The notes under the pieces are model-generated. The model saw only the letters and a program-made list of their open reading frames with translations, was not told where the DNA came from and did no database searches. The translations under genes and the position numbers were made by a program. From an uncultured bacterium (GTDB lineage Bacteria > Babelota > Babeliae > Babelales > Babelaceae), in assembly GCA_963819815.1 (NCBI GenBank), contig CAWFXL010000001.1, positions 1,472,001-1,536,000 on the forward strand: DNA of 64,000 nucleotides, given 5' to 3'. Shown in pieces: positions 3,475-62,795 of this stretch. How positions within the stretch are numbered: position 1 is the first letter of the stretch; every line of letters starts with the position of its first letter.

Positions 3475-3682
3475 TCTTTAGATGTCAGAAAATGACATTT
3501 AAGGGCATTGGAAATTTGGCCTTCTGATCGCACTATTGCCGTTTAGGTAAAAGGCGAGCTGTTTTATGGCTAAAGAATCGTATTATTTAGAAGAGATTTT
3601 GAAGAGATAGTGATGTTTCTTGTACTTTTTTTAAAATGAAAGGTCATGATACCCTAGGATGTCATTTTTCGACATTTAAGGG
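3475..3682. repeat. Two copies of a 13-5-13 imperfect palindrome (operator-like)
   Basis: TCTTTAGATGTCA-GAAAA-TGACATTTAAGGG at 3475-3505 and CCCTAGGATGTCA-TTTTT-CGACATTTAAGGG at 3652-3682. Confidence 0.7.
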
Positions 3683-3829
3683 ATTCGTGGAAGTTTAACT
3701 AAGATATACCATCTGGTTGTTATTGCTTGAGAGCTCATAAAAATTGCACCCCCTCTTGAAATTAAGTATGATAACAAATGATCTACCACAAGGAAGATCG
3801 GCTCTAAACCAATAAAATGTTCAAGAGAA

Positions 3830-4627
3830 ATGGAAAATTTTGGGGTTCATTTTTGGGTCACTGCAACCTCATTAGGTATGTCTTCTCAAGCTGTCTCAAT
3901 GGAGTCTTCATCTTCAACTATGATGTACAAAACATTTGCTACTTACTACGATCACTTTTATCGAACCAAAGACTATGAGAAAGAAACGTGCTTTTTGAAG
4001 CACCTTCTTTCGGAATATCATGTACATACCATACTCGACGTGGGATGCGGCACTGGCACGCATCTTTCAAAGTTGGAACAATCCGGCTATGCATGTGAAG
4101 GGATTGATTTAAATACCGAGATGGTTGAGATTGCCAAGACAAAACATAAAGGAACCATATTTCAAGCAGATATGAGAACCTTCCAGCTAAACCGGCGATA
4201 CGATGCAATTATTTCAATGTTCGCTGTCTTTAATCATAATCTGGATATGAATGATGCTCGTAGTACGTTAATTCAGATAAGGAATCACCTAAACCCAAAT
4301 GGTGTTGTGATTCTTGATCTTTACAATCCTCAATCATCTGGAAAAAAGGTAGATTCTTACGAAGGTATTACCAGAACAATGGAATGGCGCTTGAATACTG
4401 AAATTCAAGTTTGCGAATCTATTGTAAAATTCATTGAAGGCGATAAAGCTTGCGAAGAACAATTTCTCCTAAAGATTTATTCTATCCCGTTGCTGAAAAA
4501 ACTTTTTGAAGATGCCGGCTTTACGCACATTAAGCTCTACGACAACTATACCTTTAATGAGGGTTCGCCGCTTTCAAAAAATTTGATCGTGGTAGCAGAG
4601 TGCGGTCATCTAGAAGTTACTCGATAA
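3830..4627 (+). CDS. Class I SAM-dependent methyltransferase (true start may be 3920)
   Basis: 'FATYYDHFY..KDY', motif I 'ILDVGCGTG', 'GIDLN..MVEIA', 'QADMR', 'HLNPNGVVILD'. Confidence 0.88.
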   Translation: MENFGVHFWVTATSLGMSSQAVSMESSSSTMMYKTFATYYDHFYRTKDYEKETCFLKHLLSEYHVHTILDVGCGTGTHLSKLEQSGYACEGIDLNTEMVEIAKTKHKGTIFQADMRTFQLNRRYDAIISMFAVFNHNLDMNDARSTLIQIRNHLNPNGVVILDLYNPQSSGKKVDSYEGITRTMEWRLNTEIQVCESIVKFIEGDKACEEQFLLKIYSIPLLKKLFEDAGFTHIKLYDNYTFNEGSPLSKNLIVVAECGHLEVTR

Positions 4628-5018
4628 TCTCTGGATACTTTTTTTTCTGCGCTAAGCAGTAGCTTTCTCCGAAGCTTCCCTCAGGATGCTCGGCTACGGT
4701 GACGTACTTGCGCTCAACAAAACCACCACGTTGTGATCGTTTTTTCTCTTGAGAAATAAGTACTTCATCTTTATCAATCTTATACAGCGCCATAAGTGAA
4801 TCAATGACTTCGTAAAGGTCTGCAAGTTCACTCATACGCTCTTCTGAAGACTGAGCTGCAGCAACTTCTTCCGCCTCTTCAAGTAATTTAAGCCCTAATA
4901 TGTGACTATATTCTTCATCCGAAAGCTCTTTAATATGAATTACTGAGCCCATATTCTCCATTAATTGTGGAGCCTTATCTCTCCAGAGCTTATTCTGCAA
5001 GAACTTGCGCATTTTCAT
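4617..5018 (-). CDS. MazG-like / phosphoribosyl-ATP pyrophosphohydrolase-superfamily NTP pyrophosphohydrolase
   Basis: 'NKLWRDKAP', 'KLLEEAEEV', 'ELADLYEVI', 'KKRSQRGGF' pattern of this family. Confidence 0.8.
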   Translation of the reverse strand: MKMRKFLQNKLWRDKAPQLMENMGSVIHIKELSDEEYSHILGLKLLEEAEEVAAAQSSEERMSELADLYEVIDSLMALYKIDKDEVLISQEKKRSQRGGFVERKYVTVAEHPEGSFGESYCLAQKKKYPEIIE

Positions 5019-5268
5019 GATTTCCCTTCCCCTGGTTGTCTTTTGCATCCTTATAAGGCTATTGAGGATAGAACTTTTAGGGGCCTCAAGCAAGAGAAAG
5101 ACCTAAGAAATTTTTGGCTTTTTGTTCATGAAAAAAGAATGCAAACTGAGCACGAAAGATTGTGTATCCCTGTTTACGACCTGAAGGTAAGAAAAAATCA
5201 AACCTTTGGGTCATGATACTCAATCTACAAGACCGATAGTAATGGTGTGCTCTAAGAACCGATTTTGT

Positions 5269-7530
5269 TTACGACTCTGTGCTTTCAACAGCTACAGCGT
5301 AACCGCATTCCTTATTTGAGCATTTGAGTGTAACTTCACCTGTTTTAGAAACACGCTTCAGGAGGTACGGCAGATGACATTGCGGACAAGGGGTCTGTGC
5401 AATATCACCGGAGATTGAGAACTTACATGCTGGGTAAGTACTGCATCCCCAAAATGTTTTACCTTTCCAGAACTTCTGAACTACGTCACCTTTGCCACAG
5501 GAAGGACATTTAAAGTTTGCCGTTGTCTGTTTAATATATCGGCAATCAGGATATCCTGTGCAGGCGATAAAGGGCCCAAATCGACCACTCATTTGCCGTA
5601 GTGATTTGCCACATTTAGGGCACTGTTCTTCAAGTACTTGAGGAGCTGCTGCTTTTACGAGCTTAATTGAATCATCAGGTAAACGTTCAAAATTACTTGT
5701 GAACTTACATTCAGGATACTGATCACAGCCTGCGAAGGGGCCAGCTTTTCCAAAACGGATGATGAGCTTACCTTTTTTGCATTCAGGACAGGTGACATTT
5801 GTTTCTTCAATAGCTTTCTTCGCTTCACCTTTAAAGATTTCAAGATCTTTTTCAAAATCATGATAAAAATCTATGATAAGCTTATCGCGCTCCAAAGTAC
5901 CAGCCGCGACCTTATCAAGGTTCTCTTCCATAGCCGCTGTAAATCCAAGATTCATGATCTTGGGAAGATTTGCGGTTAACATTTTGGTGACGACGGTACC
6001 AAGCTCAGTAGGCATAAATCGTTTATTATCATCTTTTTCAGTATACGAGCGCTCTTGAATAGTCTTTAAAATAGTAGCATAAGTACTCGGTCTACCAATC
6101 CCTTCTTTCTCAAGCTCTTTCACCAGCGTAGCCTCTGTAAATCTAGGTGGCGGCTGCGTAAAGTGCTGCTTAGGTGAAAGCTCTTCAAGAGAAAGGGCCT
6201 CTTTTTCAGCAAGTTTTGACGGTATGGTAATCTTTTCTTCTTTCTCTTCTTCAGCGGCATAGATTTTCAGATAGCCATCGAATAGTAGGGTAGAGCCGGT
6301 TACTCTGAATGTATAGGGTCCGCCAACGACCGTTACTTGCTTTTGTGCATATTCTGCCGACTTCATTTGACTTGCTACGAAACGACGCCATATGAGATCA
6401 TACAGCTTGGCAGCGTCAGCAGGTAAGAACGCTTTTACTTTGTCTGGAGTGAGCGCCACATCGATTGGCCTAATGGCTTCGTGAGCATCTTGAGCTTGTG
6501 TTTTACCTTTTGCTTTGGAATAAGCTTTTGCCGTTGCTGGAAGATATTCTTTGCCGACATGTTTTTCAATATAGCTACGCGCCTGTTTTGTCGCGATAGG
6601 CGAGATACGCAGCGAATCGGTACGCATGTAGGTAATTAAAGCAACCGGTGTTGAAGGATCTTTTAACGGAATCCCTTCATAGAGTTTCTGTGCCACGGAC
6701 ATCGTCTTACTTACCCCAAATTTCAGGGTATTATACGATGACTGCTGCAACGTACTCGTCATAAATGGGGGTAACGGGTTTTTAAGTCGCTTCGATTCTT
6801 TTATCGATTCAACTTCATAGGACTCTTTTTTGATCTTAGCTACGAGCGTTTGAGCCTCTTTCTCCGTGCCAATTTTTGGTTTCTTGTCATTGACTAGGGC
6901 AAGTGGTGCAGAGAAGCTGCCGCTTTTCCCTTTAAAGAGGGCATCTACTGACCAGTACTCTTCCTGCACAAATGCCTTAATCTCTGCTTCGCGGTCAACA
7001 ATAAGTTTTAAAGCAACCGATTGAACGCGTCCTGCAGATAGGCCTTTAGCTATTTTCTTCCAAAGAATTGGGGATACTTGGTACCCTACAAGGCGATCAA
7101 GGACCCTACGCGCCTGCTGAGCCGATACCTTATGTAAATCGACATCAGAAGGGTTGGCAAGAGCCTCCTCAATGGCCGGTTTCGTAATCTCATTATAGAC
7201 GATTCTCTTGATAATCGCTTTTTTCTTAACTACACGTCCGATTTCCTGCTCAACATGCCAGGCAATAATCTCTCCCTCACGATCAGGGTCAGTTGCCAAA
7301 TAGATATGATCGGCTGTTTGAGCTTCTTTGCAGATATCTGCTATGGTTTTCTCTTTGCCTTCAAGGGTTACATAGTGGATATCCACTTCTTTATTTATCT
7401 CGACCCCAAGCTTTTTAGAAGGGAGGTCCTTAATATGGCCTACAGTGGACAATATTTTAAAGTCTTTCCCTAAAAGTTTCGAGATCGTCTTAATCTTAGC
7501 GGGTGATTCTACAATTAATAAATTCTTCAT
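5269..7530 (-). CDS. topA: DNA topoisomerase I with C-terminal C4 zinc ribbons
   Basis: 'LLIVESPAK', 'LATDPDREGE', 'SAGRVQS', active-site 'ITYMRTDS', 'GIGRPSTY' and repeated CPxC...C ribbons; start set at MKNLLIVES. Confidence 0.97.
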   Translation of the reverse strand: MKNLLIVESPAKIKTISKLLGKDFKILSTVGHIKDLPSKKLGVEINKEVDIHYVTLEGKEKTIADICKEAQTADHIYLATDPDREGEIIAWHVEQEIGRVVKKKAIIKRIVYNEITKPAIEEALANPSDVDLHKVSAQQARRVLDRLVGYQVSPILWKKIAKGLSAGRVQSVALKLIVDREAEIKAFVQEEYWSVDALFKGKSGSFSAPLALVNDKKPKIGTEKEAQTLVAKIKKESYEVESIKESKRLKNPLPPFMTSTLQQSSYNTLKFGVSKTMSVAQKLYEGIPLKDPSTPVALITYMRTDSLRISPIATKQARSYIEKHVGKEYLPATAKAYSKAKGKTQAQDAHEAIRPIDVALTPDKVKAFLPADAAKLYDLIWRRFVASQMKSAEYAQKQVTVVGGPYTFRVTGSTLLFDGYLKIYAAEEEKEEKITIPSKLAEKEALSLEELSPKQHFTQPPPRFTEATLVKELEKEGIGRPSTYATILKTIQERSYTEKDDNKRFMPTELGTVVTKMLTANLPKIMNLGFTAAMEENLDKVAAGTLERDKLIIDFYHDFEKDLEIFKGEAKKAIEETNVTCPECKKGKLIIRFGKAGPFAGCDQYPECKFTSNFERLPDDSIKLVKAAAPQVLEEQCPKCGKSLRQMSGRFGPFIACTGYPDCRYIKQTTANFKCPSCGKGDVVQKFWKGKTFWGCSTYPACKFSISGDIAQTPCPQCHLPYLLKRVSKTGEVTLKCSNKECGYAVAVESTES

Positions 7531-7860
7531 AAGCCCTTTTTTCTTCTCAAGATGTGTGCTTATAATAGCACATTTCCGTGTTTTTAAAAACGGTGGTATC
7601 ACCTTACCAGTGTTTAGATAATTTTTAAAGGGTTTCACAAATTTTTTGTTAGGTGATGCTGCTGGTAAGAAGGACCACCATGGTGCAAAATAGGCTCTAC
7701 GTTGTACAATGCATGGGATCTTTGCTGTCTTTGTTTTAGTACTTGGACCCACATTGCCATGTATAATAATACAGAAGTATTTATATTTGTCAAATTGTAT
7801 TAAGGTGGGGCAGGTATCTTTGATTACGATTGATTAAAGCAAAATAGAGGGAGGCTCTAC

Positions 7861-7988
7861 TTATTGGTTATTTTTCTGGTATAATCTAGTGCCCTTTTTA
7901 ACCAATAATTGGAAAATGTCGATTATTGGTTAAAGTTTTAGTGCGAATTTCTTAACCAATAAAAGCAAAAATGCGATTATTGGATAAA
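7861..7988. repeat. Operator-like array: a half-site plus two palindromes 54 bp apart
   Basis: TTATTGGTTA at 7861; TTTAACCAATAAT-N12-ATTATTGGTTAAA at 7897-7934; CTTAACCAATAAA-N12-ATTATTGGATAAA at 7951-7988. Confidence 0.75.
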
Positions 7989-8080
7989 TTGCGATACTTG
8001 AGATCGATTTATTCTCGGCAGCTTGAGCTGCTTAGACTCCACTGGGAGGCGTTTTGCGCTTAATCGTGGTGCGCAATGGG

Positions 8081-8704
8081 CTACTTTTCTAACAGTTGGC
8101 TAAAATAGGTGATTTCTTTAAGAGGATCTTCAGCATTGACCACGGCACTGCCTATAATTACCCCAGCTGGATTAAGGCCAAGGACCTCACTCACATTTTC
8201 ATGAGAAATTGGGGAGGCCATAAATATGGGGAGCTTGGTATTGCCTTGGATCATATGCCAGTTGTCTGTGAAGGGTGCACGCGAGTCTTCAACGCTTGGC
8301 TTATAAACTGAGAGGGCTTCTGCGCCAAGTCGGTCAGCCTCTAAAGCTGTTTGGCCGATAGAGCGTGAATCGGCGAGATCAAGAATAATCTTTGTATTCT
8401 TTTCTCGAGCTATCGTGGTAGCTGTATGAATGGTTTCTGCTCCTGCACCTGCAAGGACCGAGATCCAGTTAGCACCAGCTTTTGAAAAGAGTGCTACCGA
8501 TTCTGCGGGCCGTTCAAGGATTTGGGATTTTACCATAAGAAGCTTTTCGGGGAACATCGCTCGAAATTTTTTGACCGATTCTTCGCCATACTTATAAATC
8601 AGTAACTGGCCTATGACAAACATCGTCGCATGGGGTTCAATAATAGCAGCTACGGTGAGTGCTTTTTCAAGATCCAGTATATTAAAAGAAATAAGTAGTT
8701 TCAT
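8081..8704 (-). CDS. OMP decarboxylase/HUMPS (hexulose-6-P synthase)-family TIM-barrel protein, apparently catalytically degenerate
   Basis: Length and pattern match HPS ('LDLEKAL', 'LIYKYG..SVKKFR..FPEK', 'AGANWISVL', 'IIGSAVVNAEDP') but the catalytic D/E/DxKxxD positions are substituted. Confidence 0.75.
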   Translation of the reverse strand: MKLLISFNILDLEKALTVAAIIEPHATMFVIGQLLIYKYGEESVKKFRAMFPEKLLMVKSQILERPAESVALFSKAGANWISVLAGAGAETIHTATTIAREKNTKIILDLADSRSIGQTALEADRLGAEALSVYKPSVEDSRAPFTDNWHMIQGNTKLPIFMASPISHENVSEVLGLNPAGVIIGSAVVNAEDPLKEITYFSQLLEK

Positions 8705-8731
8705 AGGCCTCTTAAGTTGTTGTCTTATTCT

Positions 8732-9496
8732 TTAACTGATCTTCTTCTGATATTGGTCTGGTAAAAAAGTATAGTTAAAGGTTACCGGAGCAAAATAGTG
8801 CCGGATTTTTAGAAAGCGAAGAGCATTCAGTGCAGAGTTATATCCTTCAGTTACATATAAGTCTGGTAACACAAAATTTTCATTATCGGTTGTAAGCGTT
8901 GATCCTAAAGGAACAATAATATTCCTCGGGTCAGCATATATGATGATCGTATCATAGGGAATGGTTGCATTTCTTGTTAGAGGGACTGAAGTGACATGCC
9001 ATTCATAGAGTTCCGTTTCAGGGTCTTGTAAGCGATTAAAAGAATACTGTTCAGCAGGACTTTTAGGATCGACCATAAATCCAAGAAGCGTCTTAGGCTT
9101 AAGAGGGTCAACCGGTATCGGTTTAAGGGTATCGGTTATGAGAACCATAAGTTTTGGTTCTGGGGATTTGCGTTCAAAGAGAACCTGGCCATCGGCATTT
9201 GAATGGGTAATTGTTCCTGCATAGGAAGCGTACAATCCAGCATGGAGGAATGGTAGATTGAGCACTTTACTCAGAACTGGTTGCAGTATTTCATCATGGT
9301 GGCTCGTTCGACGCTTACGCTCTTCAAGAGCTTTGGTAATTGCCTCAGTTGGTGAAGTAGGAAGCGGTCGCACAAAAAAAGTTATTATGTGAGGAGATAC
9401 CTGACTCTGTACAGTACCGAATAACTGGCTGAAGAGGCAGATCATTATCAGCTGTGTTCTCAGCTTCATATTTTTAATCCTGTGGTATACACTCAT
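8732..9496 (-). CDS. Hypothetical protein with probable N-terminal signal peptide
   Basis: 254-aa ORF, co-oriented with its neighbour; hydrophobic N-terminus; no recognised family. Confidence 0.7.
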   Translation of the reverse strand: MSVYHRIKNMKLRTQLIMICLFSQLFGTVQSQVSPHIITFFVRPLPTSPTEAITKALEERKRRTSHHDEILQPVLSKVLNLPFLHAGLYASYAGTITHSNADGQVLFERKSPEPKLMVLITDTLKPIPVDPLKPKTLLGFMVDPKSPAEQYSFNRLQDPETELYEWHVTSVPLTRNATIPYDTIIIYADPRNIIVPLGSTLTTDNENFVLPDLYVTEGYNSALNALRFLKIRHYFAPVTFNYTFLPDQYQKKIS

Positions 9497-9561
9497 GAGT
9501 GTTATAAGTAGCTTCGTGCTCCTAGACTACCAGAAAACATTACTAAAAGTCTATACTACCT

Positions 9562-10185: not shown

Positions 10186-10296
10186 AAAATTACTTTCCTT
10201 TTAAAAAAATGAATACTTGCGCAAGGGGCCTTTTTTTGGTAAATTTTGTACAATTCTCACCGGGTAGGTTTTTGATTGATACATTTAGTCATGCAT

Positions 10297-10584
10297 ATGG
10301 CAGTTAAATTCTACAGACAAACTTCGGGCAAGGAACCAGTTCGTCTTTGGCTTCGTAGCCTTGAGCCGGATGATCGAAAAGTTATTGGCAAGGATATAGC
10401 AAAGATTCAAATACATTGGCCAGTAGGGATGCCAATTGTAAGGTCCTTAGGAAGAGGCTTATGGGAGATAAGGAGCTCTTTGGACCATAGAATTGCAAGA
10501 ATAATTTTTGTGATCGAGGATGGTCATATGGTCTTGCTCCATGGATTTATCAAAAAGACTAAAACCCGAATAACAGCTAAATGA
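10297..10584 (+). CDS. Type II toxin, RelE/ParE (HigB/Gp49-like); C-terminus appears frameshifted
   Basis: 'FYRQTSGKEPVRLWL', 'WPVGMPIVRSLGRGLWEIRS', 'MVLLHGFIKKT'; lies upstream of an HTH antitoxin. Confidence 0.85.
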   Translation: MAVKFYRQTSGKEPVRLWLRSLEPDDRKVIGKDIAKIQIHWPVGMPIVRSLGRGLWEIRSSLDHRIARIIFVIEDGHMVLLHGFIKKTKTRITAK

Positions 10585-10632
10585 CTTCGGAAATAGCTAT
10601 TAGGCGTCACAATACTCATAAAGGATTACAAC

Positions 10633-10923
10633 ATGGACAAGAAACATATCGGATCTGATTTTGAAGATTTTCTCAAAGAAGAGGGTATTTACGAGGAAGT
10701 TACATTAGCGGCTCTTAAGGAAGTCATTGCCTACGAATTAGCGCAAGCCATGAAGTCTGCTAATGTAACACAAGAGGAAATGGCGGCACGAATTGGAACG
10801 AGCAGATCAGTTATAAGACGTCTATTGGATCCAGATAATTACTCTGTCACTCTGATTACTTTACATCGAGTTGCAAAAGCACTGGGTAAAGATCTCGAAA
10901 TAAAATTCTCATGGAAGATGTAG
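10633..10923 (+). CDS. XRE-family HTH antitoxin (HigA-like)
   Basis: 'HIGSDFEDFLKEEGI', HTH 'VTQEEMAARIGTSRSVIRRLLDP..SVTL'. Confidence 0.88.
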   Translation: MDKKHIGSDFEDFLKEEGIYEEVTLAALKEVIAYELAQAMKSANVTQEEMAARIGTSRSVIRRLLDPDNYSVTLITLHRVAKALGKDLEIKFSWKM

Positions 10924-11038
10924 GGCTCTAACTGAATGGTCTTTCCCATCGTGTATTTTGCTGGAGTGCATTGCATTTTTTTGACCTGAGCTTATACTAA
11001 TTAGCGGCTCTCTTATCATCGGCTCAGTGAGGAATACA

Positions 11039-11317: not shown

Positions 11318-11327
11318 GGCTTTTTTC

Positions 11328-12773: not shown

Positions 12774-12787
12774 CCTGGAGATTTGGG

Positions 12788-14539: not shown

Positions 14540-14647
14540 CGCTTCTCCAGACTTGTTGCATATGCTTTCGTGTGGACTAATCATACTTCATACTGGCACG
14601 CTCTACAAGCTTTTTTCTTTTAAAAGAAGCTTAGGTTGGGCAAAAGA

Positions 14648-15382
14648 TTACAGTGAGAGATGTGGATCCTCATCTACCGCACATCCATTTCGGAGTAGTT
14701 CGTCAAGAGTATGGGTGCATATCGAAAACATATCTTTTAAGAGCTCTTTGTTCCGCACTGCCCCAAAATAATCTACGTTGTGTATTTCAAAAGATATAAG
14801 GTCTACATTTTCGGGAAATTTTGAGAACAACCATCTTTCACGATCTATGATTTTAAATGAAAAAGAATATTTCCTATTCTTATCGAGCAGATGGCGTAGA
14901 GAATCATTTTTTAGGATTTCTTTGACCAGAGGTTCAGGACTACCTTTGATGATGAAATGTGCATTGAAATGGGGATCGTCTGTTGCTATAGTACTCTTTT
15001 GGCCAGGGAACCAGCCTGAAAAAATGTTCGTTGGATAGATGGTGAACTTTAAAGAGCACGTACTGATGAAGGGGACTCTTATTCGCGTAATAGTACGGAT
15101 ATGTGGGTGTTTCCCACCAGTCCTTACCGTATAAGTATCAAGTATTATTCGCCAGGCATGATAAGGCAATATAACCTTTGCATGATGGAGAAAGCTACCA
15201 GGTTCATACGTGGCGCCGATTTCTTGGCTTAGTTCAGTCCATACTTCCTGGACGCTCGGCCCAAAAATTTTCTGAAGAAACTTCTTCAATATCAATCCTT
15301 TTTTAAAACACCTACTAATCGAGGAGAACCTGCAGATTAGTGATTTTTGTCTCTGAGTGTGAAGTACAATTGATCTTTTCAA
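14648..15382 (-). CDS. Hypothetical protein (DUF3137-like); true start probably near 15290
   Basis: Long ORF with 'FGPSVQEVWTELSQEIG', 'WRIILDTYT', 'TRIRVPF', 'DDPHFNAHFIIKG'. Confidence 0.6.
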   Translation of the reverse strand: MKRSIVLHTQRQKSLICRFSSISRCFKKGLILKKFLQKIFGPSVQEVWTELSQEIGATYEPGSFLHHAKVILPYHAWRIILDTYTVRTGGKHPHIRTITRIRVPFISTCSLKFTIYPTNIFSGWFPGQKSTIATDDPHFNAHFIIKGSPEPLVKEILKNDSLRHLLDKNRKYSFSFKIIDRERWLFSKFPENVDLISFEIHNVDYFGAVRNKELLKDMFSICTHTLDELLRNGCAVDEDPHLSL

Positions 15383-15393
15383 CTGCGATGATA

Positions 15394-15607
15394 TTCAATC
15401 CCGCGCTATCTGTCAAAAGGGCAATTTATAGCGCGGGATTGGGAGAGGTTCAATCTCGCGCTATAAATTTTGATTTTCAAATAATCAATCCAATCGACGT
15501 TATTGAGGGCCTCGTGTGGCTCTTTATTAAAAAATTCAATCCCGCGCTATCTTTGAAAAATGCTAATTATCCCGCGGGATCAAAGTTGGATCAACTCCGC
15601 GGGATTT
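15394..15607. repeat. Operator-like array of CAATCCCGCGCTAT half-sites
   Basis: 15396-15409 and inverted 15428-15441 (18-bp spacer); 15451-15464; 15537-15550 and degenerate inverted 15569-15582 (18-bp spacer); degenerate 15592-15605. Confidence 0.85.
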
Positions 15608-33325: not shown

Positions 33326-33345
33326 GGGAGTGCGTAAGCACTCCC
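33326..33345 (+). terminator. Hairpin downstream of the SBP gene
   Basis: GGGAGTGC-GTAA-GCACTCCC, without a strong T tract. Confidence 0.5.
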
Positions 33346-33608
33346 TGCCAATCTCCGCTCCTTTAAATGTTTCATAGCTATCCCTGAACATTCAACTATT
33401 AAGGACAAAATCGCTAAGCCTAAGATTAATTTTGGGGCATTTCTGTGTTGCTCGAATTGATTAAAGGGTGATGCTTCTGGAAAAGTAGGCATCTATACGG
33501 TTCTACTGGCTGACTAATTCAAGTTGTTGCTCAATATTTGCTTTGGACAGACTCAATTGATTTATTGGCCATCCTATTTAGCCTTTTGATCGACATTATT
33601 GATCTGTT

Positions 33609-33823
33609 AAAAATTTGGCGCATTATAGGAATTTATAATGCGCCAAATTTTTGAATCTTTTTGAAAATTTGGCGCATTATAAAAAATTTTCATGATTAAT
33701 CCTAATGATCCAACTTTTCATCCAGATCGTTATATCAGAGGGGTTGAAAAAATTTGGCGCATTATAGAGTTTTATAGCGCGCCAAATTTATCTATTGACT
33801 AAAGAATTTTGGCGCATTATAAT
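33609..33823 (+). promoter_or_regulatory. Operator array (six AAATTTGGCGCATTATA-type half-sites) overlapping a sigma70 promoter
   Basis: Perfect 19-6-19 palindrome at 33609-33652; half-site at 33664-33681; 17-6-17 palindrome at 33750-33789; half-site at 33805-33821 lying inside TTGACT(33795)-17-TATAAT(33818). Confidence 0.88.
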
Positions 33824-33840
33824 AAGGGGAGCAAGCAAAA

Positions 33841-35289
33841 ATGAGGGAGTCTATGATTATCGGAAGAAAAAGGGAAATAAGGCAGCTTGAAAGAGCATAC
33901 ACTGACAAGAAAGCACATTTTATAACGGTGTATGGTCGAAGGCGGGTTGGAAAAACCTTTCTCGTAAGGGAGTTTTTTTCAGAAAAAGAATGTACTTTTT
34001 TTCATGTAACCGGCGTGCACAAGGAAAAATTAGCAGCACAACTTGAAAATTTTGCTCGCTCAATGAGTAAGACTTTTTTTGCACAGGGTCCTTTGAGGGA
34101 GCTTTCTAATTGGAAGGATGCTTTTGATCTTCTTGATAGAGAAATTGCGCAAAGGCAAGGTAAGATAGTTCTTTTCTTTGATGAGCTGCCCTGGCTTGCT
34201 ACACCTCGGTCGAATATAATGGGGCAGATCGATTTTTTCTGGAATAATCGTTGGTCGGGCATGCCGAATGTTATTCTTATTGTGTGTGGTTCATCGGCAT
34301 CTTGGCTACTTAATAATATCATATACCACAAGGGCGGATTATATAATCGTACGACCACAGAAATACAATTAATGCCATTTGATTTGCACGAGACCGCTGA
34401 GTTTTTGCTCAGCAAGAAAATAAAGCTTGCTCATGAACAGGTTCTGAAGTTGTATATGGCTGTAGGTGGTATTCCCTTTTATTTGGATTATGCGGAGAAG
34501 GGATATACAATCCAGCAAATTATTCAGCAACTTTTTTTTGATGTTCGGGCACCTTTAAAAAACGAATATAGAAAATTGTTTGAATCTCTTTTTAACACAG
34601 CTGAAGCCTATCGGGAGCTTGTGGAGATTGTTGCTCGAAAAAAAGATGGTCTAGAGCGTTCTGAAATTATTAAGGAAGCGCAGTTTTCCACTGGAGGCCA
34701 TTTGACCCGTAGACTCAAGAGTCTCTGTGATGCAGGTTTCTTAAAAGAGTTCACTCCCTGGGGGAAACAGTACCAGACCTACTATAAAGTTATCGATGAA
34801 TTCTGTCTTTTCTATCTACGTTGGATAAAAGATGAGAACCATACTTTTGATCCAGATCATTGGATATTGCAGAGTCGGAGTCCTGCATATTATGCCTGGG
34901 CAGGGTATGCCTTTGAGTCGGTGTGTATGAAGCATATCTATCAGATCTCAAGGGCACTTGGCATAAAAACGGGGATAAAAATAGGGTCCTGGAAATATAT
35001 TCCTTCGGGGAATGAAGACCACGGCGCACAAATTGACCTGGTTATAGAGCGCGTAGATGATGGGATAAATCTTTGCGAAATTAAATATACGGAAAAACCA
35101 TTTTCCATTGATAAAAAATATGCAACAGAGCTTACCCATAAAGTAGAGCTCTTTACAAAAAAAGAACATAGTAAGAAACAAGTATTTCTTTCGATGGTTT
35201 CTGCAGGTGGACTAGCGAAAACAATGTACTCTGAAGAACTTGTGAGTGGAGTGGTAACACTTGACGATCTATTTAGATCACTTGGATAA
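33841..35289 (+). CDS. AAA+ ('archaeal-type') ATPase with central wHTH-like region and C-terminal PD-(D/E)xK-like domain
   Basis: 'IIGRKRE', Walker A 'YGRRRVGKT', Walker B 'LFFDELPW', 'VCGSS', 'GGIPFYL', C-terminal 'AFE..C', 'GAQIDLVIER.D..INLCEIKY'. Confidence 0.9.
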   Translation: MRESMIIGRKREIRQLERAYTDKKAHFITVYGRRRVGKTFLVREFFSEKECTFFHVTGVHKEKLAAQLENFARSMSKTFFAQGPLRELSNWKDAFDLLDREIAQRQGKIVLFFDELPWLATPRSNIMGQIDFFWNNRWSGMPNVILIVCGSSASWLLNNIIYHKGGLYNRTTTEIQLMPFDLHETAEFLLSKKIKLAHEQVLKLYMAVGGIPFYLDYAEKGYTIQQIIQQLFFDVRAPLKNEYRKLFESLFNTAEAYRELVEIVARKKDGLERSEIIKEAQFSTGGHLTRRLKSLCDAGFLKEFTPWGKQYQTYYKVIDEFCLFYLRWIKDENHTFDPDHWILQSRSPAYYAWAGYAFESVCMKHIYQISRALGIKTGIKIGSWKYIPSGNEDHGAQIDLVIERVDDGINLCEIKYTEKPFSIDKKYATELTHKVELFTKKEHSKKQVFLSMVSAGGLAKTMYSEELVSGVVTLDDLFRSLG

Positions 35290-35395
35290 TCTGAGCCCTT
35301 TCTATCATCTGGTATCATGCAGGATGAGCATGGCATGTTTTCTTTCATAGCTTCACATTCAGGCGCAATTTCAGTAGACTATCATAAAGAATTAG

Positions 35396-47218: not shown

Positions 47219-48807
47219 ATGACACAATCGCGTACTGGGCTTATCGTAAGTTCTCTTCTCTGGCTTGGGGTAACCCTATTTGGGGCCTATTTCTTGAAAC
47301 AGGTGTTACAGCCTCCTAAAAATGAGCGGGGTTATATAAACTTTGGTATCGATCTTGTGGGAGGTACCTATTTAACGCTTGACGTAAAGGTCAATGATGC
47401 CGTTAAGAATGACCTCATGGAAGTAATGCACTCATTTGTTGACGTTCTTAAAAAAGAGAACAAACCGGTTCCGAGTGTTCCTACGGTCGATGAAAATAGC
47501 CTTCATGGGCTTCTGAGCTTTGAAAGTGCTGCTGATGCATCATCTGTCTTAAGCTTATATCGCCATGATGTTGCTTTTCCCAAAGTAACTCAAGAGGGGA
47601 AAAATCTCATTTTTGCCTATAGTTCAACCCAGCTTGGTGATATTCAGAAAGAAGCAATTGAAAGTAACATAGCTATCTTGCGTACTCGCTTGGATGCCTT
47701 TGGTGCAGGTGAAGTAGGTATTGTTCCTCAAGGTGAGCGTCGCATTGGGATCGAGTTGCCTAACGTAAGTGACCCTGAAAAAGCAAAAGCGCGTGTAGGT
47801 AAGGCTGCTATTTTGGAGTTAAAACCGGTATTTGATACGGCACGAACCGAAGAAGAGCTTATTAATCGTTCAGGGGGAAACGTGCCTGAAGGAACGATGA
47901 TTGTACCAGGCAGACAAGTTTCAGATGGGTTCTACCTCGTTCCAAACTATGCAAAAATTACCGGTAAACAACTTAAATCTGCAAGCTATCAATTTATACA
48001 GGAAGGGATGAGTAGTAAAAGTCCCCATGCTGTAGGCATTGAATTTAAGGGTGAGGGGATTCCTCGCTTTGCTGATATGACAGCTGATAGTGTGGGTAAA
48101 CAGATCGCAATCATTCTTGATAATATTGTCGTATCTGCTCCAGTTGTGCATGTTCCGATTGAAGACGGAAGTGGGAATATTACTGGAAGTTTTTCTCGTG
48201 AAGAGGCTGACGAAGAGCTTGTTTCATTCCTCAAATCTGGTGCTTTCTCGGCTCCTGTGGAAGTTATTGAAGAACGTCATATCGGGCCTATCGTTCGGGG
48301 CATGAATCGATTCATAAAGGACTCGCTCTCGTGTGGAATTGCTCTGACACTTCTGTTTTTTTTAGTGCTCTTTGTGTACAAAGTAGCTGGTTTATTTGCC
48401 TTTATCGTATTACTCTATAACTTGCTCTTGATCCTCATTGGCCTTGCAATGGTACCTGAAGCGACGTTAACGCTTACCTGGTATTGCGGGTATGATCTTA
48501 CCATCGGAATGGCGATCGACTCATCCATTTTGATTTATGAACGTATTCGAGAGGAGATCTATGAAGGATCCTCATTACGCAAAGCGGTAGATTCTGGCTT
48601 TGGAGGAGCATTGACCGTTATTTTAGATGCGAATATAACCACCTTTATTGTTGGCGCAGTGCTCTATTATCTAGGTTCGCATCGATACAAGGTTTTGCAT
48701 TGACGATGATGATCGGTATCGTGGCAACCTTAATTACCGGTCTTGTGCTCTTGAAGACGATATTCAATCTCTATATTGCTTCTGGAGCAACTTCGATCAA
48801 GATCTAA
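47219..48807 (+). CDS. secD: Protein translocase subunit SecD; 3' part carries several indels (probable sequence errors)
   Basis: 'FGIDLVGG', 'IGIELP', 'IAIILD..VVSAP', 'GMAIDSSILIYERIREE', 'ILDANITT'; conserved 'PSLGHESI', 'LPGIAGMIL' and 'IQGFALTMMIGI' are present only in shifted frames; stop at 48805-48807. Confidence 0.88.
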
Positions 48808-48857
48808 GAGGTCGCGATCTCACCGATCAAAGATCTCACAGATCGCGATCTAATACT

Positions 48858-52368: not shown

Positions 52369-52375
52369 AATCACA

Positions 52376-56441: not shown

Positions 56442-56539
56442 TCGACTCCTTTTTTTGCCATTAGCTCTAGTATACCCTTGCAATGGTATTTTTTGGAAGA
56501 GAATACCTGCTCAGTTGAGTGACATTGTTAAGCTACAAC

Positions 56540-56569
56540 AAAACCCCTGCAACCAGAAAGCTGCAGGGG
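56540..56569 (-). terminator. Intrinsic terminator after the acidic small protein
   Basis: Minus strand CCCCTGCAGC-TTTCTG-GTTGCAGGGG followed by TTTT. Confidence 0.8.
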
Positions 56570-56594
56570 CTCATTATTCTTAGAGTTTAACTAC

Positions 56595-56810
56595 TTACTC
56601 GTCGTCATCCTCATCTTCATCGTCGAAGTCATCATCGTCATCATCATCGTCGTCGTCATCATCGTCGTCATCTTCTTCATCTTCGTCATCGACTTTAGCT
56701 GAAAAAAATTGCTTACCAGGATGCTCTCCTCGAGTATCTTTTCTGGTTTCCGCAATAAGCGGAGTCATCTGTTTGCTTACCGAAGCAAGTAACGTTATAG
56801 GTAGCGCCAT
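56595..56810 (-). CDS. Small protein with an extremely acidic (poly-Asp/Glu) C-terminus
   Basis: AAAAGG RBS; tail 'DDEDEEDDDDDDDDDDDDDDFDDEDEDDDE' encoded by mixed GAT/GAC/GAA codons; followed by a terminator. Confidence 0.7.
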   Translation of the reverse strand: MALPITLLASVSKQMTPLIAETRKDTRGEHPGKQFFSAKVDDEDEEDDDDDDDDDDDDDDDFDDEDEDDDE

Positions 56811-56843
56811 AGACAATCCTTTTAGGTGAAAGTGGTGGTTTTT

Positions 56844-59800
56844 TTAAATATGAATATGAGCAAGTATATTATATTCTTTCAGCTCTTTCAAAAATTTCTC
56901 AGTTACCGTAATTCGTTCCTTTGCCAGGAGCGAGAATCGTCGCTCCTGTTCAGTAAACTGAAGCTCTAAAGGCACCGTACCCGGTTGAGCAGTTCTTTTA
57001 AGAGTTGCAAGAATATCGGTGGTCACTGCTGCGGGAAGCTGCAGAACTACTTTTGTTGCAAGCTTAAGCTCAAATAAAAGATCGAGAGGAATAATAGTTT
57101 GGGCTTTTATCTTGATGATGTCTGATGAGGCGTCGACCGCTCCTTTGACGATAAATACGCTATAGGATTTCAGGTGCTCTTCGCTTTGCGCAAATGTTTT
57201 TGGGAAGATCACGATTTCTGCTTTGCTCTGATAATCCTCAAAGAGGGCGAATGCCATTTTATCCCCCTTTTTGGTGGTTATAACTTTATGGCTTTTAAGG
57301 GTTCCACAGGTGATAACGAGTGTTTCAGCAGGTAGCTGAGCAGCTTGCTCAAAGCTCAGTGCATTAATCCATTGTATATGGTGCACATAACTATCAAGGG
57401 GCTGAGCACTGATATAGAGACCAAGGACCTCTTTTTCCTTCTCAAGCTTCTCACTGTCGGACCATTCTGCAAGAGGATGAAACGTGTACTCAACATGTTT
57501 TTCAATGTTTGTTTGGGGCAGATCAAAAAGGCCCATTTGACCCGTTTGTTCTGACTTTTTCTTCTCAAGGGCTTTCTCAATAACCTTAGGAAGCTCTTCA
57601 TGCTTTTGAGCACGATTACCAGGAAGGGAATCAAAAGCTCCTGCGCTAATCAGATTTTCGATGACACGCTTATTGCAGGTTCGTAAATCGATACGCTTAC
57701 AAAAATCTAAGAGATCTTTAAAAGGACCACCTTCAGTACGATGAGCAAGCATAGAATCAAGAGCTGCCATGCCCACATTCTTAATACCTCTCAGTCCAAA
57801 ACGAATGACTCCATTAACCACGGTAAAGTCTGTCTGTGATTCATTAATATCAGGTGGTAGTACCTTAAGTCCTCTATCTCGTGCTTCATATACATATTTT
57901 GCCATCGACTCTGCATTACCCATCTCAAGAGAGATTAAGCAGGCGAGGAACTCTGCAGGATAGTTTGCCTTTAAGTAAGCAGTTTGATAGGCAATGAGCG
58001 CATATGCTGCTGAGTGTGACTTATTAAATCCGTATCCTGCAAAGTAGGCCATGAGGTCAAAGAGCTCTTTTGCCTTCTCTGTATCAAAGTTACGAGCGGT
58101 TGCTTTGTCCATGAAGATCTTGCGCTGCTCATCCATAACCTCAACTTTCTTTTTTCCCATGGCGCGTCGAAGAATGTCAGCTTCCCCGAGGCTGTAGCCA
58201 CCTATCGTAGAAGCGATTTTAATGACCTGCTCCTGATAAACAATAACCCCATAGGTTTCTGAAAGCAGGGGCTCAAGCTCAGGAAAGAGATAAATAATTT
58301 CTTGGCGTCCATGCTTTCGTTCAATAAAGTCGTCGACCATTCCAGATCCAAGTGGACCTGGTCGGTACAGTGCGTTTACTGCAATAATATCTTCAAAACA
58401 GGCAGGCTGGAGTTTGCGTAGAACTTCTTTAAGACCGCTCGACTCTAATTGGAATACCCCCGATGTTTCGCCTTTACCAAGTAGCACAAAGGTTTTGGGG
58501 TCATCAAGAGGGATACGGGTAATATCGATCACCGTACCATGGAGCTTCTTAATAAGGTCCGTAGTATGTTTGATCAGCGTGAGATTCTTAAGTCCCAAAA
58601 AGTCCATCTTCAAGAAACCCAGAGTTTCAAGTTCGGTCATCGCATATTGGGTTACCAAGTCAGATGTCTTTGGCGGCACAAATACGGGGAGCATATCACT
58701 AATCGGTTCAGGTGCGATAACAATACCCGCAGCATGCTTAGAGGCATGCCGAGTAACTCCTTCAAGCCGTTTTGCAAGATCAAAGAGCTTGGCAACTTGA
58801 GGGTTGGTATCGATCATCTCTTGGAGCTTAGGCTCTTGCTTAATGGCCTCATCAAGCGTTATTTTAAGCTGATCAGGGATAAAGTTAGTAAGCGTATTTG
58901 AGTCTTCAAAAGGGAAGCCCAACGCTCGAGCAACATCTTTGATAACCCCTTTTGCAAGCATAGTACCAAATGTAATAATCTGACAGACCTTATCGTGTCC
59001 ATACCGATCCTTTACGTAGTTAATAACCGCATCGCGGCCATTAATACAAAAGTCGATATCGATATCTGGCATCGATACCCGCTCTGGATTTAAAAAACGC
59101 TCAAAGAGGAGATTGTACTTTAAAGGATCAATATCAGTAATTTGCAAAGACCAGGCAACAAGACTCCCGGCTGCAGAGCCCCTACCTGGGCCTACAGGAA
59201 TATCATTGGCACGAGCCCATGCAATAAAGTCGCTCACCACAAGGAAGTATCCGACGAAGCCCATCTTGATAATAAGCTGCACTTCAAGCTCAAGTCGATC
59301 GCGATATTCTTGCTCTTTTATCCGTTCAATTCTTTCAGAATCGAGCAATTTATTGAGCCCTTCGAAACATATCTTATGAAAGTAGGTATCTTCCGTATAA
59401 TCGGGGGGCAGCTCAAACTTAGGGAAAAAGAGTTTACCCGTTTCAAACTGGAAGTTGCAGCTATCTGCTATTTTACCACTATTCCATACGGCATCTTCGT
59501 GATCCTTAAAGCTGACAAGCATCTCATCGGGTGTGCGAATATACGCTCTACAGTCGCCAAACGTAAACCGGTCAGTATCTGAGACTTTTGCATGAGTTTG
59601 GATGGCGAGCATCGTTTCATGAGCTTCATGATCATCTTGCGATACATAGTGACAGTCTCCTGCTGCAACCAGCTGGATACCACGGCGCTTACTCACTTCA
59701 TACAGACGATTATTAAGTATGACCTGCTCCTGCTGGTCTGCTGGTTGTACCTCTAAATAGAAGCGCTCTTCACCAAATACCCGTAAAAACCAGTCAATTC

Positions 59801-60266
59801 GTTCATCAGCCTTGGTATACTGCTCCTGCATAAGAAGAGACGGTATATGGCCTCCCAAGCAGGCAGTAGTGACAATGAGACCTTCATTATACTGTTCAAG
59901 GAGTTTGTAATCGATCCGTGGCTTAAAGTAAAACCCTTCTTGGTAGGCATAAGAAATAAGTTTACAGAGATTTTTGTAGCCGGTGGCATTTTGAACGAGA
60001 ATAATGAGGTGATAGTACTTATTTTCACTGAGTTTAAGTCGTGCATCTTCAGTAAAGTATGCTTCCATGCCAAGAACAGGCTTGATACCAGCTTGATTTG
60101 CAGCTTCAAAGAACTTAACCGCCCCAAATATGTTCCCATGATCAGTAATGGCGAGTGCTTTAAGCTTGTGCTCTTTCCCAAACTTAATAAGCTTCTTGAT
60201 GGTAATAGCACCATCGAGGAGCGAATAGTCAGAGTGAAGATGCAGATGCGTAAAGTGTTTTTCCAT
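56844..60266 (-). CDS. dnaE: DNA polymerase III subunit alpha
   Basis: PHP 'HLHLHSDYSLLDG', 'GPGRGSAAGS', 'ERFLNPER.SMPDIDIDF', 'KMDFLGL', 'YGFNKSH'. Confidence 0.98.
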   Translation of the reverse strand: MEKHFTHLHLHSDYSLLDGAITIKKLIKFGKEHKLKALAITDHGNIFGAVKFFEAANQAGIKPVLGMEAYFTEDARLKLSENKYYHLIILVQNATGYKNLCKLISYAYQEGFYFKPRIDYKLLEQYNEGLIVTTACLGGHIPSLLMQEQYTKADERIDWFLRVFGEERFYLEVQPADQQEQVILNNRLYEVSKRRGIQLVAAGDCHYVSQDDHEAHETMLAIQTHAKVSDTDRFTFGDCRAYIRTPDEMLVSFKDHEDAVWNSGKIADSCNFQFETGKLFFPKFELPPDYTEDTYFHKICFEGLNKLLDSERIERIKEQEYRDRLELEVQLIIKMGFVGYFLVVSDFIAWARANDIPVGPGRGSAAGSLVAWSLQITDIDPLKYNLLFERFLNPERVSMPDIDIDFCINGRDAVINYVKDRYGHDKVCQIITFGTMLAKGVIKDVARALGFPFEDSNTLTNFIPDQLKITLDEAIKQEPKLQEMIDTNPQVAKLFDLAKRLEGVTRHASKHAAGIVIAPEPISDMLPVFVPPKTSDLVTQYAMTELETLGFLKMDFLGLKNLTLIKHTTDLIKKLHGTVIDITRIPLDDPKTFVLLGKGETSGVFQLESSGLKEVLRKLQPACFEDIIAVNALYRPGPLGSGMVDDFIERKHGRQEIIYLFPELEPLLSETYGVIVYQEQVIKIASTIGGYSLGEADILRRAMGKKKVEVMDEQRKIFMDKATARNFDTEKAKELFDLMAYFAGYGFNKSHSAAYALIAYQTAYLKANYPAEFLACLISLEMGNAESMAKYVYEARDRGLKVLPPDINESQTDFTVVNGVIRFGLRGIKNVGMAALDSMLAHRTEGGPFKDLLDFCKRIDLRTCNKRVIENLISAGAFDSLPGNRAQKHEELPKVIEKALEKKKSEQTGQMGLFDLPQTNIEKHVEYTFHPLAEWSDSEKLEKEKEVLGLYISAQPLDSYVHHIQWINALSFEQAAQLPAETLVITCGTLKSHKVITTKKGDKMAFALFEDYQSKAEIVIFPKTFAQSEEHLKSYSVFIVKGAVDASSDIIKIKAQTIIPLDLLFELKLATKVVLQLPAAVTTDILATLKRTAQPGTVPLELQFTEQERRFSLLAKERITVTEKFLKELKEYNILAHIHI

Positions 60267-60447
60267 GGCCCACATAGTAGCAGGGATTTATCAGTAGTGC
60301 GTACTTTTAGTATACCACACTGGTGATATTTGGGTAAGGGCAAACGTGTTACGAAAATATAGTTGGTTAATGCATCAATGTGAGGAGATTGGTTTAAGAA
60401 AGGGCTACTTTAGAGAGTATTTATATGATTTCATAATCAGAAGAGCT

Positions 60448-60657
60448 CTATTTAATAAATAAGCGTTTTACTTCATCTTGGGAACGATACTCTTTTTCTT
60501 GTTCGAATGCTTTTTCAGCCACCGAACCAAAATACATGTCTTCGATTTCTTCAATCAATTTCTCATACTGGTCTAGGCTCAAGATGACGCCGGTTTTTTT
60601 TCCAGAAGCATCAATAATGTATTGTGGCTCGAACTCTTCTAGTGTGTTTTTTTTCAT
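60448..60657 (-). CDS. Small antitoxin-like protein (RelB/Phd-like), no intact toxin downstream
   Basis: 'QYIIDASGKKTGVILSLDQYEKLIEEIED...DEVK' pattern; AAGGA RBS. Confidence 0.65.
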   Translation of the reverse strand: MKKNTLEEFEPQYIIDASGKKTGVILSLDQYEKLIEEIEDMYFGSVAEKAFEQEKEYRSQDEVKRLFIK

Positions 60658-60742
60658 AATTATTTCCTTTTTAGGTAGATGCGCATATTATATCTATGAT
60701 TAATCATAATATCGCAATCAGATAAAGAGCGCTATTGCTATT

Positions 60743-61939
60743 TTAATTTCTCTTTTCCTCTAAGATGTCGTGAATCAAGTGTCCTGAAGATTGCCAGCTT
60801 AAAACCGAAGCCTGTGGCCAGTGCTGGGTATCTGAACCACCATAGATAACGTAATTAGAAGAGTTTGATGTTTGAGTGATTGAGTTCCAGAATTGAATGC
60901 TCTTGAAAAAGTCTGGCGCAATCGTTTTGCTTGATTTAATTTCAACTGCAAGTGGATGGGGCTTTATATCAATAATCGCATCAATTTCATGACCTGTATG
61001 ATCACGCCAAAAGTACAGGTTTGGTGTTCGGTCGAGATTGAAAAATTGCTTATTCAAATCACTCATAATACAGGTTTCGATTAATGAGCCACGAAGATAG
61101 CTATGGGAAACATCGTCTACCGTGTTTAAACCAAGTAATGAACAGGCAAGTCCCGTATCTACAAAATATAATTTGGGTGTTTTGACTAGACGCTTTCCGT
61201 ATTTTTCATAGTAAGGCTGCACAAGAAATACGATATAGGAAGATACAAGTAATGAAAGCCATGCATTGACTGTATGATAGGAGATTCCAAGATCTTCAGC
61301 AATGGATGATAAGTTTAATAATTGGCCCGATCGGGCAGCACAAGTTATGATAAACTTTTTAAAGAGCAATAGATCCGTTATGTATTTAATCTGTCGTATG
61401 TCTTGCTCAACATAGGTTTCTATATAATTTTTATAGAGAATGCTTATAGGAACGTCCTGGCCATAGAGTTTTGGATAGCTACCCTTTAAGACATAATCCT
61501 CAATTCGATCAGCCAGTAGACTGGCTTCTCGGAGCTCCTGAATTGAAAGAGGGAAAAGCGTAAGCTTCGCTACTCTACCGGCGAGGCTTTGAGTAATCCG
61601 CTCATCGAGAGCGAAATTCTGCGAACCGGTTAAAATATAGCGACCATTCTTTGGATCTTCATCAGCAAGGACCTGGACATAGGAAAAAAGGTCCGGAGCA
61701 TGCTGTGCTTCGTCAATAATAATGCCAGTTTTACCCAAGAAGTCCTTTAGGAATCTTTTTGGATCGGCTGATGCAAGGCTCCGCAAGGTAAGGTCTTCAA
61801 GATTGACATAGGCGTGATCAGGAAATACGAGACGTGCAAGTGTTGTTTTTCCTGATTGCCGCGGTCCAAGTATGGCTACCACAGGGAAGTGCTTTGCTGC
61901 TTCTACCAACTGTTGATGCAAACTGCGTTTTATTATCAT
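60743..61939 (-). CDS. AAA+ ATPase with C-terminal DUF4143 domain (AAA_14/DUF4143)
   Basis: 'MIIKR', Walker A 'GPRQSGKTT', 'IIDEAQ', 'LTGS', 'SLAGR', 'KTPKLYFVDTGL', 'YFWRD..GHEIDAII...AVEIKS'. Confidence 0.92.
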   Translation of the reverse strand: MIIKRSLHQQLVEAAKHFPVVAILGPRQSGKTTLARLVFPDHAYVNLEDLTLRSLASADPKRFLKDFLGKTGIIIDEAQHAPDLFSYVQVLADEDPKNGRYILTGSQNFALDERITQSLAGRVAKLTLFPLSIQELREASLLADRIEDYVLKGSYPKLYGQDVPISILYKNYIETYVEQDIRQIKYITDLLLFKKFIITCAARSGQLLNLSSIAEDLGISYHTVNAWLSLLVSSYIVFLVQPYYEKYGKRLVKTPKLYFVDTGLACSLLGLNTVDDVSHSYLRGSLIETCIMSDLNKQFFNLDRTPNLYFWRDHTGHEIDAIIDIKPHPLAVEIKSSKTIAPDFFKSIQFWNSITQTSNSSNYVIYGGSDTQHWPQASVLSWQSSGHLIHDILEEKRN

Positions 61940-62198
61940 ATTTGTCCTCTCCCAGAATGTGTATGCACTTATGTATGTAACTTTCTTGCCTGCGTTTCTA
62001 AATTTACATGGTTATTGGGGAAGTTGCAATGATTTTAAGGAAAAATTCCTAAAAAAACAATGGCAAAACATCTTCTAAAATTTCCTATGGATCAACATTT
62101 CTAACTTTTCAAGTAACATTAGCAATCAAACTTCTAATTTTACAAATTTAGATCGTTGGTAATGCCCTAATACTGACAACCCACCAGTAGCCGTCAAG

Positions 62199-62312
62199 GC
62201 AATATTCCTTAGGAAAACGTGCTGATTTTCACGTTTTTCCAACGAATAACGTGTGAGGTGACTACGTTTTTCTAAGGAATATTGCGAGTTTCGACACGTT
62301 TTCCTAACAAAT
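62199..62312. repeat. Operator-like array: one inverted and three direct ~20-bp units, 32-33-bp period
   Basis: GCAATATTCCTTAGGAAAACGTG (62199-62221) is nearly the reverse complement of TACGTTTTTCTAAGGAATATTGC (62263-62285); related copies at 62230 and 62295. Confidence 0.8.
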
Positions 62313-62313
62313 C

Positions 62314-62795
62314 CATCTTGTGGAGGCACCAAAATTTCCTCTATCTGCCTATGCAGACACTGATACGTTTAAGGTTTTTCTCTTAGATGTAGGCTTGCTC
62401 GGGGCCCAAAGCTCACTTTCTGCCCGTACTATCATTGAGGGCGATCGCCTATTTACAGAGTTTAAAGGGGCATTAACTGAAAATTTCATTGCACAGGAAT
62501 TAATCGCGACCTCATCCAAGAAGCTGTATTATTGGAAAAGTGCGGGAACGGCAGAATTTGATTTTCTTCTTGAATTAGATCATGAAATTTACCCGCTAGA
62601 GGTTAAGTCTGGGGAAAGTACGAAAAAAAAGAGTCTGGTCATCTATGGCCAAAAAACCATTCATCCTTGCTTCTGCGCACTACACTGATGAATTTAAAGG
62701 CCGATGGCAAGATCATAAACTATCCTCTCTATCTTATAAGTCTTATACAGAAAAGTGTTCCCGATGAGAGAGTCAGGGAGTCGGTGAAAGATTAA
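62314..62795 (+). pseudogene. 5'-truncated, frameshifted DUF4143-type ATPase remnant (C-terminal domain only)
   Basis: 'PKFPLSAY..DTFKVFLLDVGLLGA...FTEFKGALTENFIAQEL...YYW...AEFDFLL...PLEVKSG'; no Walker motifs; continues in another frame after the A-run near 62651 ('...KIINYPLYLI'). Confidence 0.8.

Follow-up and report, generated by a model that had tools for sequence, protein, structure and literature searches.

Putative private promoter arrays of candidate defence ATPase-nucleases, and arrays left behind at lost genes, in a Babelaceae genome

In the accessible text of the sources, PDC-S27 and PDC-S01 are described as single-gene fusions of an ATPase with a PD-(D/E)xK domain, PDC-S01 ranking fourth in frequency among defence systems, and the majority of PDCs are said to await validation (PMC12988326); the PDC candidates themselves come from bioRxiv 10.1101/2024.01.29.577857. 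The domain content has been tabulated with the function given as untested or unknown (PMC3424549), and DUF4143 is mentioned in passing in 2026 preprints. The family descriptions in the accessible part of PMC12988326 contain no operator array, DNA specificity or autoregulation, and a literature search, which covered mostly papers readable without subscription and their main texts, found no report of arrays before PDC-S27 or PDC-S01 genes. Here we analysed a 64,000-nucleotide stretch (the window; C1:1472001-1536000 of contig C1, CAWFXL010000001.1) from the 1.64-Mb genome of an uncultured Babelaceae bacterium (G000). Its members of the two families are a PDC-S27 gene (ATPase_2/DUF234, COG1672) starting at 33841, a PDC-S01 gene (AAA_14/DUF4143, COG1373) starting at 61939 on the minus strand, and a PDC-S01 remnant; six intergenic repeat arrays lie in the same window.

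AbiE offers a regulatory parallel, as the AbiEi winged-helix protein represses its own promoter via inverted repeats (PMC3985639 and PMC7319586, accessible text). The ATPases would resemble it in winged-helix autorepression through inverted repeats, and the window array at 3475 is just such an AbiE operator. Unlike AbiE, the ATPases carry the predicted DNA reader and the predicted toxic domain in one protein, have no antitoxin gene and are preceded by longer, phased arrays. With Orc1/Cdc6, SSO1545 and PAB2304 they share an AAA+ plus winged-helix fold; unlike these, they possess an extra C-terminal predicted nuclease domain, occur as dozens of patchy paralogues and are frequently lost, and nothing links their arrays with replication. 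In archaea, origin boxes are located next to cdc6. STAND ATPases (NLR resistosomes, Apaf-1) are structural matches to the ATPase and winged-helix parts of the modelled 33841 protein, but that protein is devoid of a repeat sensor domain and has its effector at the C-terminus, and the likeness is one of fold only. Autorepression is ordinary; what is unusual here is that some 30 paralogues of one 1.6-Mb genome would each have a private operator.

Arrays at the ATPase genes and across their families

On the evidence of sequence comparison, it is probable that each PDC-S27 and PDC-S01 protein binds a private array at its promoter through its winged helix and represses itself, and that gene deletions leave orphan arrays behind. 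A preliminary description of the window had proposed that each paralogue has its own operator. Enrichment of arrays before these genes, promoter overlap, residue-base covariation in PDC-S27 and linked movement of array and gene speak for this proposal, in which binding itself is predicted. The features concerned are listed below. G001, the nearest relative (67% complete, with about 91-96% identity in most blocks), is the reference for synteny.

33611..33823, plus strand: putative operator array of the PDC-S27 gene (repeats, shuffles, promoter match)
33841..35289, plus strand: PDC-S27 gene, AAA+ ATPase with winged helix and PD-(D/E)xK-type domain (domain match, model, alignment)
33345..35317, no strand assigned: array-plus-gene module (the whole module missing in the nearest relative, 32 unrelated bases instead)
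60743..61939, minus strand: PDC-S01 gene, AAA_14 with DUF4143 (domain and PADLOC matches; missing at this site in the nearest relative)
61996..62143, minus strand: degenerate repeats upstream of the PDC-S01 gene, the weakest of the six arrays (shuffles, comparison)
62199..62311, plus strand: putative operator array, with a 32-33-bp step, of the gene behind the remnant (repeats, synteny)
62308..62688, plus strand: 5'-deleted PDC-S01 remnant (residues 286-399 of the closest intact relative, then out of frame)

Each array was compared with 60 dinucleotide shuffles in two settings, 14-mers and 12-mers, and each of the six outdid all of its 60 shuffles in one setting or both. The arrays at 33609 (six half-sites), 15394 (five half-sites detected, with a degenerate sixth seen by eye), 7861 (four to five) and 62199 (three to four) were unmatched by shuffles in both settings. 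Two were weak: the 3475 array was equalled by 8/60 shuffles with 14-mers and 0/60 with 12-mers, and the 61995 array gave nothing with 14-mers and four degenerate 12-mers (0/60; score 3.75 against a null maximum of 3.7). The six arrays with differing motifs are present where the preliminary description had placed them, and the coding neighbours are an ATPase_2 gene at 33841-35289, an AAA_14 plus DUF4143 gene at 60743-61939 and a remnant with DUF4143 only.

In PADLOC, the 33841 protein matches PDC-S27 over its full length (E 3.7e-169, 471/474 positions), and the 61939 protein (E 6e-95) and the remnant match PDC-S01, both being candidate defence families. The predicted structure of the 33841 protein (pLDDT, the score of the predicted local distance difference test, 92.5) has a helix-turn-helix (HTH) and wing at residues ~254-317, with a predicted recognition helix at residues 286-297 after a Gly-Gly turn and His at position 287. 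D399, E413 and K415 and the Walker A/B motifs are invariant in 46/46 aligned PDC-S27 proteins, 29 of which also match DUF234; the winged-helix-like region and PD-(D/E)xK-like C-terminus that the preliminary description ascribed to such ATPases are present in this protein, as a predicted model and as the invariant residues D399/E413/K415. Fold searches, which bear on the ATPase and winged helix and barely cover the C-terminal domain, placed SSO1545 (2fna) closest (Z 21.3, root mean square deviation 2.9 over 299 aligned), with PAB2304 (2qen; Z 20.2) and plant resistosomes among the other matches and a lower score for DNA-bound Orc1/Cdc6 (2qby; Z 15.3, deviation 6.7). Searching solved structures with the winged-helix sequence returned a weak match only (E 0.19).

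The 33609 array consists of a palindrome at 33611-33650, a half-site at +54, a second palindrome at +139 and a last half-site, which lies over the spacer and -10 box of a sigma-70-like promoter, TTGACT-17-TATAAT (33795-33823). Its half-site is otherwise absent from contig C1 at up to one mismatch. At 15394, read on the minus strand, the last half-site fills the spacer of TTGACA-17-TATCAT (15416-15388), a promoter register identical to that of another PDC-S27 locus (L063). A repeat over a -10 box, noted beforehand for two arrays, is seen at 33609; at 15394 the repeat occupies the promoter spacer, and no sigma-70-like box over repeats was reported at 3475 or 7861. The shared geometry of the 15394 and 33609 arrays holds for the same-orientation steps (55/86/55 and 54/85/55) once 15394 is read on the minus strand. 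The 55-bp step recurs throughout the family, as 54-56 bp in 37 of 73 same-orientation intervals of PDC-S27 arrays, whereas the second spacing does not, and a fixed 140-bp step was rejected, the distance varying from ~123 to 163 bp in relatives.

To count arrays, at least three copies of a 14-mer with at most two mismatches were called within 300 bp upstream of a gene. The 31 paralogues analysed from this genome (20 AAA_14-type and 11 ATPase_2-type, with the in-window remnant additional to these) had arrays in 21 cases, against 24 of 1321 other open reading frames (ORFs; simple ORF caller). Among C1 genes whose upstream non-coding gap was 100 bases or longer, a comparison set that excludes divergent neighbours of paralogues, arrays preceded only 14 of 787, so the expected excess before the ATPases was borne out. 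Four of these 14 genes flank orphan arrays, three are Fic, Schlafen/AlbA and HTH genes, and two further ones that were scanned gave no Pfam match. Private arrays thus also stand before other accessory genes, which matters for how orphan arrays are read. Palindrome arrays were seen at C1:110523, 137102, 1018624 and 1271934, where the genes that follow are of the Fic, Schlafen/AlbA-HATPase and HTH kinds, with one that had no Pfam match.

Across the family, 165 PDC-S27-like loci were reduced to 122 under 90% identity, and 98 of the 122 qualified as having an array; by record titles, the relatives come from Legionellales, Coxiellaceae, Chlamydiales and others. A strong sigma-70-like box was found in 23 of 76 PDC-S27 loci, with a half-site on the box in 21 of the 23 and in one register in 15. 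One PDC-S01 subclade has 20-bp boxes at a 32-33-bp step in 20/29 loci, and the 33-bp box rule applied to G000 picked out 4 of 1352 ORFs, all of them paralogues. Two PDC-S01 genes at C1:926031-928622 diverge from a single short intergenic region, and an array lies near one of the two. Relative G003 gave 25 matches to the 33841 protein, many with stops or frameshifts, which suggests fast turnover.

Recognition helix, half-site and proposed mechanism

Covariation of protein and half-site was computed on half-sites aligned without use of the proteins, for the 76 loci whose register was adequate. Among all residue-base pairs, the highest score joined residue 287 to half-site base 7 (z 10.8, 0.82 bit), the remaining 29 pairs listed reaching at most 0.47 bit. 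Residue 287 is the first residue of the predicted recognition helix, and Arg287 occurs with C in 17/17 loci, Thr287 with T in 17/19, and Tyr, Trp, His or Leu with G in 9/11. Recognition helices typically contact guanine through Arg and thymine through Thr.

The winged helix of each ATPase-nuclease would probably bind its own array, and the bound protein would block its own promoter, acting by repression rather than activation. The step of 55 bp in PDC-S27 and of 33 bp in PDC-S01, equal to about five and three turns of the double helix, may permit cooperative loading, and the divergence of the operators may allow some 30 paralogues to coexist without cross-talk. The purpose would be to hold down a harmful, probably anti-phage, predicted nuclease, and deletions sparing the promoter region would leave the arrays as fossils. 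Now that the DNA substrate and one specificity residue have been predicted, binding, regulation and activation become directly testable, and cloning of PDC-S27 and PDC-S01 genes with their native array suggests itself.

Several results weigh against this account. The case for binding and repression is built from sequence comparison and predicted structure. Ten of the 31 paralogues fall below the array threshold, and because the half-site ends in TATA, part of its overlap with the -10 box follows from the motif itself. The covariation covers PDC-S27 only, box geometry having been counted for PDC-S01, and the single-sequence structure prediction of the 61939 protein was unusable (pLDDT 38). From the covariation, 46/122 loci were left out (24 with no array, 20 of poor register and 2 divergent ones). 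On a tree from which the winged helix was omitted, independent pairs concur with the table (Arg/Thr 5.8:0 of 7; Thr 8.5:1.1 of 10), but these contrasts were picked after the table had been seen, and their median uncorrected p is 0.02-0.03. Among 14 held-out loci, seven had a predicted residue and an array, and the script called two right and five wrong; two of the misses fit only after manual re-orientation by eye, which brings Arg and Thr to 4/5 with one Thr missed. Tyr scored 0/2, both Tyr loci having T, and the rule that a bulky residue reads G, drawn from the 9/11 training cases, was rejected for Tyr. Finally, an ATPase had been looked for in relatives at 3.5, 7.9 and 15.4 kb; the nearest relative has AbiE at the first site, and no ATPase stands beside 7861 or 15394 in the five relatives compared. 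On comparison of sequences, a link between helix and site holds in PDC-S27, and a clean one-letter code does not. The suggestion that the motif tracks the ATPase accordingly stands for the 76 loci behind the 287/base 7 pair; the held-out set is mixed and contradicts it for Tyr.

The arrays could also be assembly platforms in addition to operators, on whose phased sites the ATPase would oligomerise, like Orc1/Cdc6 at origins, and remain docked in an inactive state until an infection dislodges it or breaks up the array. We regard this as unlikely. The fold resembles DNA-bound Orc1/Cdc6 and STAND ATPases, the nuclease motif is invariant among the aligned proteins, and up to 6-7 phased half-sites, together with second palindromes far upstream, are more than simple repression would require; however, in several relatives the array is a single palindrome or just two to three half-sites, and the extra sites fit cooperative repression equally well. 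In a related and similarly doubtful model, PDC-S27 and PDC-S01 proteins might be Orc1/Cdc6-like nucleases parked on an array that serves as operator and guard, with loss, mimicry or cleavage of the array in infection freeing the ATP-driven nuclease; every paralogue would have altered its reading helix so as to have an array to itself. If this were true, the family would also supply a natural collection of orthogonal repressor-operator pairs whose residue-base code can be read in part.

Orphan arrays and gene turnover

At two sites outside the window, arrays left behind on gene deletion are observed directly. At C1:325071-325243, the array is kept (84%) of a PDC-S27 gene that is intact in the nearest relative, and at C1:267677-268128 the boxes and first codons are kept of a PDC-S01 gene whose counterpart there has an intact 5' part as far as the contig reaches. 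Within the window, the remnant matches the C-terminal part only of the PDC-S01 model, and its closest intact relative (L040) is 83% identical over residues 286-399. We assign the 62199 array to the remnant's gene as its operator because its motif recurs upstream of the L040 gene with an unchanged step. The nearest relative retains this array (91% identical) with no remnant at all, and the remnant's gene was, by this comparison, lost in stages. The remaining arrays of the window, and the ORF downstream of one of them, are as follows.

3476..3682, minus strand: leftover AbiE operator pair (units 3476-3505 and ~3652-3682; synteny)
7861..7988, minus strand: orphan array, two palindromes and a half-site with a 54-bp step (repeats, motif match)
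15388..15606, minus strand: putative orphan PDC-S27-type operator array with intact promoter (layout, promoter, synteny)
14648..15292, minus strand: ORF downstream of the orphan 15394 promoter (weak DUF3137 match, below cut-off)

The 15394 and 7861 arrays look like orphan PDC-S27 operators, the family being assigned from geometry and motif. The former is kept in the nearest relative, with no ATPase beside it in either genome, and a search of 261 genomes from the phylum found its exact pattern only in G000. The 15394 half-site is similar to the one before paralogue C1:207504-208967. The inner 22 bases of 7861 match the operator of paralogue C1:219693-221135 at 21/22, and no closer match was found among relatives of that paralogue's subclade; at up to three mismatches in the same 261 genomes, the pattern recurs in four others as single sites, with no such ATPase at the compared loci. 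In the nearest relative, 7861 is mostly deleted, with one half-site kept.

The 3475 array has a different origin. In the nearest relative, AbiEi and AbiEii stand directly beside the palindrome, which is 28/30 identical at -42 of AbiEi; AbiEi of locus L333 has a unit 23/30 identical at -42, and related units lie at -40 to -42 of further AbiEi genes. By synteny, the 3475 array is a leftover AbiE toxin-antitoxin operator, a fossil of the same kind, and an ATPase origin was rejected for it. The idea that orphan arrays mark former ATPase sites therefore survives for 62199 and the two sites outside the window, fails for 3475, and at 7861 and 15394 lacks the gene alongside in the five relatives compared. 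Such arrays may serve as a record of lost defence genes whose family can be assigned from geometry. An orphan PDC-S27-type array also lies at C1 ~1580680-1580820 (L258), between a lepA-like and a small gene; no ATPase was found at the slot matching C1 ~1580700 in the three relatives whose slot was compared, the region being outside the coverage of G001.

As the preliminary description had allowed, the orphans could be live sites through which distant paralogues control neighbouring genes in trans. The 15394 promoter is aimed at ORF 14648-15292, and the likeness of its half-site to that of a paralogue, together with that of 7861 to the operator at C1:219693, favours this view. Between G000 and G001, however, the 15394 half-sites differ at 9/102 positions and the flanks at 28/386; the half-sites diverge as fast as the flanks and are therefore drifting, leaving regulation in trans without support there, and 7861 is largely gone from G001. 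We consider control in trans quite unlikely.

Linked gain and loss is seen most clearly at the 33345-35317 module, whose array and gene are present or absent as one unit relative to G001, as had been proposed for single-gene modules; in four further relatives, its slot holds other genes or nothing. Downstream of the PDC-S01 gene lies a 69-amino-acid ORF (60448-60657, minus strand), also missing at the site in G001, which by eye has the look of a lone antitoxin. A scan of viral contigs with a PDC-S01 protein gave no matches.

Weaker explanations and other features

Two further explanations of the arrays were weighed. The half-site might be a restriction-type target at which incoming DNA is cut, with the array as decoy or self-mark. 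The PD-(D/E)xK motif is conserved, specificity changes quickly among paralogues and both families are listed as defence candidates; nevertheless, core 7-mers are not consistently depleted in the host genome (3/16 below the 5th percentile and a fourth at it, those of 33841 at expectation), no methylase adjoins the window genes and the gene's own promoter is where the sites are found, which makes this reading very improbable. That the arrays are recombination or mobility signals of single-gene modules is hardly credible, since, although an array comes and goes together with its gene and relatives have different cargo in the same intergenic slots, no target duplication or far-end repeat was seen at the 33.3-35.3 kb module, arrays remain after gene loss, the window has no recombinase and the covariation points to the winged helix.

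Other features of the window were noted in passing. A Gp49/RelE-like toxin and HTH pair lies at 10276-10923, where G001 keeps the HTH gene and a different gene replaces the toxin. Two 22-bp direct repeats are located just upstream of a tRNA-Met gene (48799-48851), and a low-complexity run of Asp-codon-like repeats occupies 56599-56705, between a HAD gene and dnaE.

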